NCBI GenBank assembly: GCA_964016885.1
Contig: OZ024743.1
Span: 146,258,001 to 146,322,000, forward strand
Reading direction: 5' to 3'
DNA length: 64,000 nucleotides
Source of the DNA: Eledone cirrhosa
Taxonomy: Eukaryota
The notes under the pieces were generated by a model that was not told the origin of the DNA, did no database searches, and saw only the letters and a program-made list of their open reading frames with translations. Both the position numbers and the translations under genes were made by a program. Positions 6,065 to 62,740 of the stretch are shown here, piece after piece (position 1 is the first letter of the stretch; each line of letters starts with the position of its first letter).

Positions 6065-6200
6065 ATTATTTTACGATCGTTTCTGGGGGGTAGTTCCCTG
6101 TATGTTCATTCAATTATTGATCTATGTAAAACATATTACAAAATATCATAGTAAGAAAAAGATACATACGTCTTCACTACCTGCCGTCTTCAGAAATAAT
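6065..6200 (-). ncRNA. Type-I hammerhead ribozyme motif with ~100-nt stem II
   Basis: Minus strand reads ATTATTT-CTGAAGA-[..GGTAGT..GTATGT...ACATAC..ACTACC..]-GAAA-CGATCG-TA^AAATAAT: 7-bp stem I and palindromic stem III. Confidence 0.7.
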
Positions 6201-6283
6201 CATTATATATATATATATATAATCAGAAATAATCATTATATATATATATATATATATATATATATATATATATATAATAATCT

Positions 6284-6332
6284 GATTCCTGATGATTTCT
6301 AAAGAATGAAACAGTTCTAGTCCTGTAGAATC
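6284..6332 (+). ncRNA. Type-I hammerhead ribozyme motif
   Basis: GATTC-CTGATGA-T-TTC(TAAA)GAA-T-GAA-ACAG(TTCTAGTC)CTGT-A^GAATC. Confidence 0.8.
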
Positions 6333-7157
6333 TCATCTACATTAAAATATATATATATATATATATATATATATATATATAAAACGAAGGAGGTGGGGTA
6401 AGGAACCAGATGGACTATAATGCACCAGAGTACTCAATACTTAGGGTAGTAGAGTGGGTAATATATATATATATATATATATATATATATATATATATAT
6501 ATATATATATATATGCATATGTGTGTGTGTTTTACATGCACATGTATAAATATATGTAAATTTACTTTATTATTATTTCATGTTTATGCATGTGTGCATA
6601 CAGATTGCTTCTTACATTCTCAAACAGACACATGCACACACATTTATGAGGGGGGGGGGAGAGAAAGATTGAGGAAATGTGAGGGAGAGTGATAGACAGA
6701 TAGAAACAAGATTGCTGGGAGAGTATGTGACGAACTGTCACTGAAAATATAAATTATGAAGTTGCATGCATCTGTTTCAGAATTCAAATTTGACAGATTT
6801 TGTTTTTAGACCCTAACACTGAATTTAATAGTTTTGTAATAATAAATAAATGTGAAAAATCTTCATTTTTGGAAAAATTGCAATTGTTGTATAAGCATAA
6901 GATTTGTAAATTTGCCTTTAAAAGTTCGATTCATCTTCTGAAAGCTAAATCTACATTTGAATATACATTTTTACTTTTCGTGGAGTATTTCAATTTTAAT
7001 TAAAAAAAGTTAAATTTTATCTATGAATATGTTTATTTATATGAACGTGTATATTTGTGATTGGTATTTTAGAATCGATTATAACTGACCACCTGCTTAG
7101 TGTCAGGGTTATAAAGAATATATATATATATATATATATATATATATATATATATAT

Positions 7158-7322
7158 TGTTATACTTTGGGAGGGTCATGTTTCCAATAATAAACACACG
7201 CACCAGTTGCTTTCACTTCAATTTATTATAAATTAAATTTATAAATTTATGGTTGATTTCAACAATATCGGTTTCAACACACGTTTTCATATAAAGAATC
7301 TTGCTAAACAAATTCAGAAACG
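7158..7322 (-). repeat. Second copy of the 3556 repeat family
   Basis: Shares tgttatactttgggagggtcatg ... aaattcagaaacg with 3556-3760; lies within (TA)n. Confidence 0.6.
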
Positions 7323-7428
7323 ATATATATATATATATATATATATATATATATATATATATATATATATATATATATATATATAATACAAGGACGATTT
7401 GTCAAGCCCCTCATCATGTTTATTAATT

Positions 7429-7513
7429 GGTGACGCGCGTTTCGCTATTGATCAGCTCAAGGTTCGATCTGTATCGATCTGGCCCAACTCTGGAATCAAA
7501 AGCTCGTCGGACC
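7429..7513 (-). ncRNA. Hammerhead-like motif with variant core CCGACGA and extended stem II
   Basis: GGT-CCGACGA-GCTTTTGATT...GATCAATAGC-GAAA-CGCGCG-TC^ACC. Confidence 0.6.
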
Positions 7514-58772: not shown

Positions 58773-58834
58773 TTTTATCTGATGAGGACATACTAAAAAA
58801 ACAGCACAGTACCTCCGAAATATATATAATAAAA
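58773..58834 (+). ncRNA. Type-I hammerhead motif, right arm of inverted repeat
   Basis: Same as 58530-58591 with two G>A changes in stem II. Confidence 0.75.
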
Positions 58835-58892
58835 CATATATTTTGATTACGTGAATGTCTCCATTTATTAATATTTTGAATATTATTAATAA

Positions 58893-61355
58893 CTAGAAAT
58901 AAATTTAAAAGCATATTACATGATGCTTTCGACAGTAAGGAAGAGCAATTAGAGTCGTACAATATAGAGGAACAGTGGGAATTCCTGAAAGCAAACCTGC
59001 TGATGGCAGCAGACGAAGTCTGTGGCTGGAGCAGGCCTGTAGGCAGGAGGAGAGTAACATGGTGGTGGAACAGTAAGGTGGAGGAGTCAATTAAGGCCAA
59101 AAAGCAGGCTTGGAAAGTATGGCAGGATGGGGGAAGTAGAGAAGACTATCAAGTGGCCAGGAGGGAAGCTAGGAGATAAGTGTACTTCGCAAGAAGGGAA
59201 GCAGAGGAAAGAAAGTTCAAGCATGTTCTACAACGCGAGGACCAAAAACGTGAGGTGTTCAGGATTGCTAGGCAATGTGTCAAGGAAAACCGTGATATTG
59301 TCGGGGAGAAGTGTGTACTTAATGATGATGGCGTACTTGCCATCACTGATGCTGATAAGAAGGTAGCTTGGAAGTGTCACTACGAAAAGCTACTAAATGA
59401 GGAGAATAAATGGGAGAAAGACAGTCTCCCCCACATCGACCCAATAGAGGGACCAGCAGTGTTAGTCGAAGGTAGTATAATAAGTAAGGCAATCAAAGAT
59501 ATGAAGACGGGTAAGGCGACTGGGCCTTTGGAAATAGTTGCTGAGATGCTGAAAGCCTCTGGAACGGTGGGACACACCATGGTCACCCGGATAGTAAACC
59601 AAGTCGTACAGAATCAGGTTGTTCCGAAGGACTGGCGTAGCAGCATCATCATTAACTGCTACAAGGGTAAAGGAGACGCCCTAGATAGGAGTAACTATAG
59701 AGGCATTAGATTAATCGACCAGGTCATGAAGGTCACGGAAAAAGTAATAGCGCAACTAATCAGAGAGAGAATTGACCTAGATGAAATGCAGTTCGGGTTT
59801 GTGTCAGGCAAAAGTACCACAGACGCTCTTTTCATTGTATGACAACTACAGAGAAGTACCTAGCTAAAAGTAAACCCCTATACTTAGCTTTCATCGACTT
59901 GGAGAAAGCCTTCGACAGAGTCCCGCGTTCCATTATCTGGTGGGCTCTTAGAAAACTAGGTGTTGATGAATGGCTTGTGAGAGCTATACAAGCCATGTAT
60001 AAAGAAACAGTGAGCAAGGATAGAATTAACAACGAATATAGTGAAGAGTTTAGCGTAAAAGTTGGTGTTCATCAGGGCTCTGTTCTTAGCCCCCTACTAT
60101 TTATTATTGCCCTTCAGGCTATAACAGTGGAGTTCAAGACCAGCTGCCCATGGGAACTCCTATACGCAGATGATCTAATGCTCATAGCTGAATCAATGGC
60201 CGAGCTAGAGAAGAAATTTCAAACATGGAAGCACGGCCTAGAATCAAAAGGCCTTAAAATTAACCTGGCTAAGACTAAAGTTCTAGTTTGTAGGAAAGAA
60301 AATAAGGCGCCGGTCCCTTCCGGGAAATGGCCATGCTCAGTGTGTAGGAAAGGCGTAGGTAGAAACTCCATTTTATGTCCCAAATGCAAAGTATGGGTGC
60401 ATAAAAGATGTAGTGGGATCACAGGTAAGCTAACTAAGAACATAGATTTTACATGTGGCCGGTGCTCTGGTGCAACAAGTAGCAGCAAGTGCCCACAAAA
60501 TACTAGCTCTTTCAATTGTGCAGAGGGTTCTATAGAAATAGTGGACAGCTTCCGTTACCTGGGTGACAAAATCAGCAGTGGGGGAGGGTGCTCTGAAAGT
60601 ACAATAGCTAGAGTCAGAACTGGATGGAAAAAGTTCAGAGAGCTTATACCACTATTAGCCGCTAAAGGGTTCTCCCTAAAAATGAAAGGCAGGCTGTATG
60701 ATGCCTGCATACGAACAGCAATGTTGCATGGCAGTGAGACCTGGGCATTGTGTGCAGAGGATATACGCAGACTAGAGAGGAACGAAGCTTGCATGCTCCG
60801 CTGGATATGTAATAGTAATATACGCGAATGGCAAAGCATAAACGAACTAAGGGAAAAATTAGAAATAAGAGGGATCAGATGTTGTTTACTCGAGAGAAGG
60901 CTACGTTGGTATGGTCACGTAATGCGCATGAAAGACGACAGCTGTATAAAAGACCCGCCTTACCTAAATACAAAGTAAAACCTACTACAGTCAGTAGGCA
61001 TCTCTAACAAAATACACCCCGTCCCACCACCCCCACCCAATCCACACCGCCCCTTTCAATGTAAAGTTATGTTGGTGCCACAACATCCAGGCTGAAACAA
61101 ATGAGATCGTGTAGGTGTCACGACAAAAAACACACAGTCCACGCTGTAATGTGGCCGTGTAGGCAACACGGTAAAAACTTTCCAGCCCCACACTGTAAAT
61201 GTGGTTGGTGTTAGGAAGGGCATCCAGCTGTAGAAAACCCGCCAGACAGTCCTATGCGAGCAAGACAACCACTCTTGCCTCAAGTGGGAAAACTCCCGTC
61301 CAAACCCATGCAAGCGTGGAACATGGACGTTAAACGATGATGATGATGATGATGA
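58893..61355 (+). mobile_element. 5'-truncated RTE LINE, same subfamily as 30463-34690
   Basis: ORFs 59180-59842 and 59839-60978 almost identical to copy 1; CGA>TGA plus a 1-nt deletion near 59840-59851; ~152-bp deletion at 60950; (GAT)n tail. Confidence 0.93.
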
Positions 61356-62384
61356 ACTCCAGAAAACTTCTGCTGTTGAGTGCTTTTAATTTATTGTAAA
61401 ACTATATTCATTGAATAATCAATGAACCTTGTTTAACATTTGGTTATATGTATATATATATATATATATATGTATATTTGTGCGTGTGTGTGAAGATATT
61501 GATAAATTGATAGCTAGATAATATCGTCAACTTCAGCTTCACACTATTGCTAGCAAATACATACATTTTAATTTCACACACACATAGTCATATTATATAT
61601 ATATAATGCTGAATGAAGTGTGTAAAAGCTGTTTTTCATTTTAAGTCTTCTATACGAAAATAAAGATTGTATAGTTATTTCCCTTCCATTGAATACTCTT
61701 TCCAAAAGCATTAATTCTGTCGGCTTTATTTATATATTTAGCTATTTAATCAATTTAAACGTCCCTATAGAGCTGATAAAGCCATGATAGACTAGAAGAC
61801 GTTTCTAATTTTCCCTATAGTTATGAAACAAAAACGAAAGAGATAGAGAGGCGCAAGAAGCAAAAATAAGAAAAAAGGGGAAAATCAAGGCTAGCTATAA
61901 AAAAAAAAAAAGGAATCAATTGACAAGATCTCAGACCTCATTCACTTACCAAGGTGGGGTGGAACTCGTCTAATCGGACCATTACTGATACTATCTATAG
62001 GTTGCAATTCTTGGCAGAAAGAGCAATATGAAATACAGTGTCTTGCTCAAGGATAAAACACATTGCCCAGTCTGGGAATCGAACTTGCAACCTCATGATT
62101 CATCATCATCATCATCATCATCATCATCGTTTAATGTCTATCTTCCACGCTAGCAAGAATCCCAATCTCTAACCACTAAACCATGTGCCTTCACAAGGAC
62201 AGATATAGAGCTGTTAAATGTTTCTGTTGTATCTTTTTGTAGTCCCAATGTACTGGAAGATCTTGTTTATGGTTGGTAGATCCTTGACAATATACTGCAC
62301 CTCCAATCTATACTAATATAACAATATAAAGTAATACATGTAGAGCTGTTACTTCTCTGAATTGAGAGATCACAGCTTTGATAC

Positions 62385-62607
62385 TATGGACATGTGGCTA
62401 GAATGTCTCAGGAAAGAATTGCTTGACAGATTTTATGGGCAAAACCAACTGGTAGGAGACCCAAGCGTAGACCCTGAGCAAGATGGTTAGATAACATCCA
62501 TGAGCTTGGTCATGCTTGGGGATCCAGCCGGATTATTTGGAGATGGTTTCTTCTGACAGGACCCACTGGTAAGAGTATCTGAGGATTCTGCCCCCACGAA
62601 GAAGAAG
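62385..62607 (+). mobile_element. Old RTE-like 3' fragment
   Basis: GHVARMSQERIA*QILWAKPTGRRPKRRP*ARWLDNI. Confidence 0.6.
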
Positions 62608-62708
62608 TAATACATGTATGCAAAAAGTAAACAGAAATAACAAAGCAAACAACACAGTACAATGAAGAAATATATTATTTTAACTCTTGATATAGTAGGA
62701 AAAGAGTT

Positions 62709-62740
62709 TTTACATTTCAGACACTAGTCCTTCATCAGAA
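62709..62740 (-). ncRNA. Minimal hammerhead-like motif
   Basis: TT-CTGATGA-AGGAC(TAGT)GTCT-GAAA-TG-TA^AA; related remnant at 18041-18062. Confidence 0.45.

Follow-up and report, generated by a model that had tools for sequence, protein, structure and literature searches.

What are the 13 hammerhead-like motifs that lie scattered over 64 kb of the Eledone cirrhosa genome, and how did they get there? The stretch that was analysed, called the window throughout (contig OZ024743.1, positions 146,258,001 to 146,322,000; G000:C4:146258001-146322000 in our coordinates), is 64,000 nucleotides long and lies inside a 3.0-Gb genome. An initial annotation, made from the letters alone, described a dense population of type-I hammerhead ribozymes next to (TA)n and proposed that they belong to a radiation of small retroelements. 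With a probability of roughly 0.8, we read the motifs as hammerhead-type sequences in the short ends of Penelope-like elements of the Hydra clade and of relatives that are likely non-autonomous. They were probably put into (TA)n by the elements' own reverse transcriptase (RT)/GIY-YIG protein, and many of the modules are likely copies of an uncleaved leader.

Hammerhead motifs in the window and across the genome

Sequence scans of the window found the type-I hammerhead layout at all 13 positions listed by the initial annotation. Four motifs are on the forward strand (C3 at 6289, 29848, 51531 and 58779) and nine on the reverse strand (6193, 7510, 17149, 17658, 51361, 53596, 53946, 58585 and 62738). 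Here, each motif is located by the start of its core, C3; the annotation had numbered them by their low ends. Its statement that most copies keep stem I, CUGANGA, GAAA and an NUH site applies to nine of the 13, in which the canonical elements accompany a stem I of 4–9 bp, and fails for two family variants and two decayed copies. Motif 7510 has a CCGACGA core (C4) and motif 51361 a UUGAUGA core (U3), each typical of its family. In motif 53946 the GAAA of most relatives is replaced by AAAA, so that the catalytic G12 is lost; motif 62738 belongs to a real family but has decayed. A fixed descriptor recovered nine of the 13, missing 6193 and 51531 (both caught by a looser scan), 53946 and 62738.

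Block-wise dinucleotide shuffling, a control that had been suggested beforehand, gave mean counts of 0.05–0.53 motifs, and none of 150 shuffles reached the observed count in any of the four tiers. The 13 motifs sort into 10 sequence families. Because three of these (17658, 29848 and 58585/58779) share stems I and III, about eight are unrelated, in accordance with the earlier estimate of at least seven. The model-based scan that had likewise been suggested came out negative: with Rfam, no hammerhead match was obtained in the window at gathering scores, and no hammerhead model occurred among the 150 weak matches listed of 404. Those listed were rejected as ribozyme signals, being microsatellite artefacts; the output of a repeat finder run on the window was also swamped by microsatellites. 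We regard the 13 motifs as confirmed sequence features, any self-cleavage being putative.

The same descriptor was applied to a genome sample of 100 evenly spaced 10-kb stretches. It found 102 motifs per Mb (95% interval 73–135), or 71 in the strict tier (46–99), compared with 1–4 motifs per Mb and 0–1 in the strict tier in ten shuffles of the sample. The window is thus dense in absolute terms, as originally described, but not enriched relative to the genome; by resampling, the probability of at least nine motifs in 64 kb is 0.28. The 102 sampled motifs fall into 44 clusters, with stem II ranging from 12 to 97 nt and stem III from 2 to 16 nt, and with U3 and C4 core variants present. An exact pattern covering three window families matched 56,812 times in the genome, where the sample had predicted about 51,000, and its reversed control did not match at all. 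Extrapolation from the sample leads to an estimate of 2–3 × 10^5 hammerhead motifs genome-wide.

Published counts, obtained with other descriptors, are 126,247 in axolotl, whose genome is far larger, more than 6,000 in Acropora and about 5,000 in Mytilus (PMC7229834) and about 9,000 in Xenopus (PMC4209133). For the giant squid, 235 were reported with Rfam (PMC6962438), and the repeat annotation of Octopus vulgaris, in the part of the paper considered here, makes no mention of ribozymes (PMC13282606). A comparable cephalopod load was not found in the literature, a search that left subscription papers mostly outside; the supplements of PMC8557442 and PMC4209133 may list such families.

Parent elements and insertion anatomy

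Each family searched in the genome yielded 93–2,740 first-look candidates, of which 40 per family were scored. In long genomic copies, five of the 10 window families continue upstream into RT and GIY-YIG frames on the same strand: 58585/58779 in locus L131, 29848 in L278, 6193 in L276, 6289/17149/53596 in L269 and 17658 in L134, with a sister subfamily in L271. The full element at L269 is ordered as end repeat, hammerhead, tail, open reading frame (ORF) and end repeat. A 2.6-kb end repeat closes with the hammerhead, the sequence after the cut leads directly into a 758-amino-acid frame, and the repeat recurs, giving a unit of about 5.2 kb whose ORF begins 176 nt after C3. Its protein carries RWR, DKT, CNCLNKEAC and CDLC..E..N..CMH, and the CxCx5C linker is present in 11 of 11 aligned protein rows. 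The published Hydra-clade set consists of RWK, DKT, CxCx5C, and CxxC and CxH around E and N (PMC8557442). By these protein motifs and by (TA)n insertion, the parents are assigned to the Hydra clade of endonuclease-bearing (EN+) Penelope-like elements.

Two further families are likely non-autonomous. In the 51531 family, locus L273 has two direct cores 1,384 nt apart and no long frame between them, which defines a 1.38-kb unit; for the 51361 family the unit measures about 700 bp, and one of 15 loci shows terminal redundancy. The proposal of a TA-linked ribozyme radiation tied to a Penelope-like RT/GIY-YIG therefore stands, but not as one of separate small elements, since five families are ends of autonomous elements and two look non-autonomous. 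The initial annotation named a candidate enzyme at 55180–56855. This remnant (55172–56851 in our analysis) is Hydra-like and thus of the same clade; its 3′ end is gone, and the hammerhead family carried by its closer relatives is absent from the 13, so that it was rejected as the parent of the window motifs. Rejected as separate insertions were also the ORF upstream of the 17149-family copy L092 and the ORFs near the 7510-family copy L200/L275. Genome-wide, there are 58,844 first-look GIY-YIG candidates. Frames resembling Penelope-like elements of other clades occur at L150:1-1578, L274:7974-9998 and L278:6145-7203, and non-Hydra helpers therefore exist.

The sampled motifs, taken over all families, have (TA)4+ within 200 nt 3′ of the predicted cut in 84 of 102 cases, compared with 18% of random sites, and most window motifs also lie near (TA)n, as had been noted; motif 58779 has none within 2 kb downstream. 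An inverted copy lies upstream of 32 of the 102. Inverted pairs combine one long and one short 3′ end in 38 of 41 cases (12/13, 10/12 and 16/16 in three families), in sets that include loci chosen by family query. Tails in three families measure about 79, 94 and 81 nt; published tails, flanked by two RT start sites, are 30–40 nt long (PMC11167929). Lone or inversely paired motifs, a tail on one side and (TA)n as a target all belong to known Penelope biology (PMC8557442, PMC4209133, PMC3846280).

A 213-bp fold-back of the 17149 family is informative about how such pairs arise. Its centre differs among 20 near-identical copies, and both arms share subfamily letters; the fold-back therefore forms anew, and a fixed master resembling a miniature inverted-repeat transposable element (MITE) was rejected, as the junctions vary. 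The young 17149-family element also has long (TA)/(TG) microsatellite tracts within its own end repeat (L145:7960-8900 and L269), and it may therefore spread its own target.

Copy ends, predicted ribozyme activity and competing explanations

To locate 5′ ends, each copy was compared, from the core upstream, with one natural long copy of its family. Four families have sharp modal ends, each on the A of a YC/A site (the slash marks the start of the copy): TC/ACT, TC/ATA, CC/ACT and TC/ATT. Sites of this type make up 2% of upstream positions. The mode at −68 holds five of 31 copies, with 12 within −70 to −63; that at −69 holds 11 of 37, with 23 within −71 to −69; that at −88 holds five of 36, with 13 within −89 to −85; and that at −7 holds eight of 21. 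An independent set of 19 loci from the start of the exact-pattern list had 16 of 28 arms ending within −71 to −67; eight ends beyond −100 in this set look like alignment breaks in long copies. Forty-four 5′ ends that fell inside the ribozyme belong mostly to sister subfamilies that have diverged, and they were left out of the count of true ends. Among 100 copies whose anchor lies downstream of the cut and that did not come from a query of their own family, none starts within 3 nt of the predicted cut. As no copy starts at the cut and the sharp ends lie on YC/A, many modules are likely run-off cDNAs of an uncleaved 5′ leader RNA, with the modal ends as probable transcription starts. The Penelope end repeat is known to contain an internal promoter with an initiator (PMC2377424), and a rotifer element has a TCACT initiator-like site, its solo repeats being ascribed to recombination or deletion. 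Our literature search found no paper stating a run-off origin of short Penelope-like copies.

Covariation, the third check proposed at the outset, was assessed in 38 copies of one family group, selected for their tail homology and core and without regard to pairing. In stem II, 95.2% of cells are paired compared with 92.3% after shuffling, and 39 two-sided changes, including AU–GC and UA–CG swaps, compare with 12.8; none of 500 shuffles scored as high on three of five measures. The central dinucleotide of stem III, which in short stems is unable to pair within one strand, is self-complementary in nine of 14 families, a wobble in four and neither in one, over a background of 23%. The short palindromic stem III of the initial annotation was thus mostly borne out. 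For all nine motifs with both values computed, the self-duplex is predicted to be more stable than the monomer hairpin; the 17149 family can build a stem III of 4 bp by itself. Lunse et al. (2017) is reported to bear on a dimer model of cleavage. The palindromes and the calculated duplex stability fit that model as published for metazoan Penelope hammerheads (PMC4209133).

From these elements a scheme can be assembled. Studies of other Penelope-like elements would supply a promoter within the end repeat, a pair of internal RT start sites on either side of the tail, and a mechanism in which both DNA strands are nicked and extended. RT would then begin in the leader, copy back across the uncut hammerhead and run off the RNA 5′ end, leaving a module of 65–260 nt. 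Two such run-off cDNAs joined head to head would give fold-backs, and tandem or circular templates longer copies. Acting as a monomer, the ribozyme would be weak, and it is predicted to depend on dimer formation or on help from protein; most lone genomic copies would therefore be nearly inert.

Several findings weigh against this interpretation. Predicted monomer folds mostly lack the hammerhead fold. Two of the five covariation measures were no better than shuffles, and relatedness can inflate the other three. Long-copy searches revealed no parent ORF for families 7510 and 53946, and none was searched for 62738. In the 17149 family the peak, at −5 (19 of 73), misses the YC/A site by one base, and the upstream walk gave no sharp 5′ mode for families 7510, 51531 and 51361. 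The additional G that a cap should leave precedes 17 of 33 modal ends; this exceeds the genome background of 22% but does not clearly exceed the 13 of 37 at other breakpoints, and some of these G residues may be templated. Finally, the hot spot of the 29848 family lies on a CATATG palindrome and three hot spots are AT-rich, so that fold-back priming or target microhomology could explain them.

The last two points also favour an account in which the elements are the same but the short copies are ordinary 5′ truncations, with hot spots caused by RT stalling, palindromes or (TA)n microhomology and not by transcription start. It gains further from overlaps at inversion junctions (19 of 47 in five families and four of five in two more) and from the interpretation of palindromic junctions as self-priming in PMC3846280. 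We consider it quite possible, though we would not bet on it: four unrelated hot spots each begin on the A of YC/A, the TC/ACTG site of the 58585 family is no palindrome and does not resemble TA, and AT-rich sites closer to the ribozyme are weaker stops. The modules might instead be mostly independent non-autonomous retrozymes or fixed mini-elements copied as units, for instance via circular RNA. The ORF-less units described above, the tandem hammerhead arrays elsewhere in the genome (310-bp units in the classical retrozyme layout at L150:5400-8000, five on one strand and at least three on the other; four copies of a 562-bp unit at L271:2048-4110) and the fact that 40 of 40 scored fold-back matches span nearly all 213 bp at 95–100% would agree with this. 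Yet a direct partner lies within 2.5 kb of only four of 52 sampled motifs, the differing fold-back centres and shared subfamily letters point to formation anew, and for the five families that run into ORFs the idea already fails to convince. On the whole it is unlikely.

Hardly better, and if anything a shade worse, are the prospects of a role in host transcripts, with lone sense copies acting as efficient ribozymes that cut pre-mRNAs. The canonical core kept in nine window motifs and the self-sufficient stem III of the 17149 family are what one would look for in that case. However, tested metazoan Penelope hammerheads cleave poorly and, in the published work as far as it is used here, Anolis RNA ends were not found at the cut site; the upstream inverted copies could pair with nearly a third of the sampled motifs, and the 213-nt module is predicted to fold as one hairpin of −111 kcal/mol. 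Nor was a host gene found in the window, where none of 105 non-repeat frames passed the Pfam cut-off, a search that would miss short exons. Chance matches in AT-rich repetitive DNA, finally, are practically out of the question. The absence of Rfam matches and the weak, AT-rich stems are what such an origin would predict, but it is already refuted by the shuffled and reversed controls, and the fixed place of the motifs in element ends and the compensatory changes in stem II contradict it as well.

Insertion by Hydra-clade elements with frequent copying of an uncleaved leader thus remains our preferred explanation. A stronger version, to which we would give slightly less than an even chance, holds that this is the densest known hammerhead load (about 70–100 per Mb) and that most short copies are "strong-stop" cDNAs running off the capped transcription start. 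If true, such cDNAs would explain solo pseudo-long-terminal-repeats (pseudo-LTRs) and fold-backs without recombination or ribozyme cleavage, and the role of the ribozyme would be confined to making a circular or end-defined template for long copies. The origin of Penelope-like end repeats and the role of the hammerhead are described as open questions in PMC2377424, PMC8557442 and PMC11167929. The dozens of young families, with about 10^5 copies between them, offer sharp tests of copy ends, cap-derived G and intron purging of sense copies. The genome is also a large natural library of hammerhead variants missed by Rfam models, in which stem II is long and the palindromic stem III varies. The inverted arms present at about one third of the motifs might, if transcribed, form long perfect hairpins and be substrates of RNA editing or small-RNA pathways.

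Features of the window and comparison with known systems

Individually, the features of the window are ordinary Penelope debris. A Penelope-like 3′ end with a hammerhead lies at 5870–6200 on the reverse strand (C3 6193, predicted cut after 6072). Its stem II is about 100 nt long, its stem III reads CGAUCG, and the copy begins at the modal 5′ end of its family; 6017–6200 is 98% identical to L276, in which a same-strand GIY-YIG frame lies about 520 nt upstream. The forward-strand copy at 6284–6347 (C3 6289, predicted cut after 6327) is a short end of the 17149 family, sits between two (TA)n runs and is 95% identical to the end repeat of L269. On the reverse strand follows a module with the CCGACGA core and a CGCGCG stem III at 7383–7530 (C3 7510, predicted cut after 7432). 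The 213-bp fold-back occupies both strands of 17010–17222. Its tailed arm (17010–17154, reverse) contains an intact hammerhead (C3 17149, predicted cut after 17111); the tail-less arm (about 17155–17217, forward) has a broken core. Another 3′ end with a hammerhead, flanked on both sides by (TA)n, spans 17543–17744 on the reverse strand (C3 17658, predicted cut after 17610). Nearby, the 3′ half of a 62738-family hammerhead at 17993–18062 (reverse) was absent from the initial list.

The inverted pair at 29690–30039 (forward) consists of a tailed arm (29778–30039, C3 29848, predicted cut after 29902) and an internally deleted inverted arm (29690–29783); the module is 97% identical to L278, which has a 596-amino-acid RT and GIY-YIG frame upstream. 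The likely non-autonomous unit of about 700 bp extends over 50840–51419 on the reverse strand (UUGAUGA core, stem III CUACCGGUAG, C3 51361, predicted cut after 51286) and includes a short inverted arm at 51361–51419. The end of the likely non-autonomous 1.38-kb unit lies at 51486–51663 on the forward strand (C3 51531, predicted cut after 51595). Two reverse-strand features follow, namely an older subfamily of the 17149 family at 53468–53599 (C3 53596, predicted cut after 53558) and an old module at 53818–53973 (C3 53946), predicted dead because G12 reads A. The broken Hydra-clade RT and GIY-YIG remnant (forward) has several stops and frameshifts. Another inverted pair, 58482–58907, has a reverse arm at 58482–58770 (C3 58585, predicted cut after 58536) and a forward arm at 58771–58907 (C3 58779, predicted cut after 58828); it is 96% identical to L131, where same-strand remnants of RT and GIY-YIG lie upstream. 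The decayed minimal-hammerhead-family copy at 62611–62765 (reverse, C3 62738) has a broken stem I.

A highly abundant repeat resembling a short interspersed nuclear element (SINE) lies in or beside modules at AT-rich spots (53622–53810, about 55700–55878 within the RT/GIY-YIG remnant, and 58393–58481), and at locus L212 it interrupts a hammerhead core. A strongly strand-skewed 36-bp minisatellite of about 97 copies fills 9578–13088. Two copies of a long interspersed nuclear element (LINE) with endonuclease and RT, which we take to be RTE-like, lie inverted about 26 kb apart at 30853–34249 (reverse) and 58895–60978 (forward) and are 97% alike; a diverged piece occurs at 49921–50887. Other non-LTR remnants are an RT frame (PF00078) at 2007–3431 and a zf-RVT piece at 44113–44601, both on the reverse strand.

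What appears to be new is the motif load, the tails of 79–94 nt and the sharp, family-specific 5′ ends on initiator-like YC/A sites. With the C-terminal EN+ Hydra clade (Craig et al. 2021, PMC8557442), our elements share a single RT and GIY-YIG frame with RWK-like, DKT, CxCx5C and CxxC/CxH motifs, canonical hammerheads, (TA)n insertion, partial tandems, an inverted 5′-truncated arm and a one-ended tail. In contrast, that clade is described there from 21 Repbase families and a few others, with tails of 30–40 nt and units below 3 kb, whereas here it is a major repeat class with tails of 79, 81 and 94 nt and a unit of about 5.2 kb at L269. The metazoan Penelope minimal hammerheads (Cervera and de la Pena 2014, PMC4209133) likewise occur mostly as single motifs from truncated elements or as opposite-strand pairs 100–700 bp apart, with an unpaired base 5′ of stem II and a short palindromic stem III. 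They number 2,000–9,000 per genome; in the Eledone sample stem II spans 12–97 nt and stem III 2–16 nt, and U3 and C4 variants are present.

Poseidon of Anolis carolinensis, studied in vitro (Frangieh et al. 2024, PMC11167929), has two internal RT starts bracketing the tail and an AT-rich target, extends both strands and uses uncleaved RNA as template, in line with the scheme proposed here. It belongs to another clade, however, and its ORF begins inside the hammerhead and not 176 nt after C3; genomic copies ending at a transcription start are not reported in the part of that paper used here. No window module is a head-to-tail tandem array of hammerheads; the 51531 family does have an ORF-less copy with two cores, at L273. 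Non-LTR retrozymes (Cervera and de la Pena 2020, PMC7229834; Li et al. 2026, bioRxiv 10.64898/2026.07.22.740005) are also ORF-less type-I hammerhead repeats linked to Penelope-like elements, and the 310-bp and 562-bp arrays of this genome resemble them. Their RNAs measure 170–400 nt (PMC7229834), whereas the ORF-less units described here are about 0.7 and 1.4 kb long.

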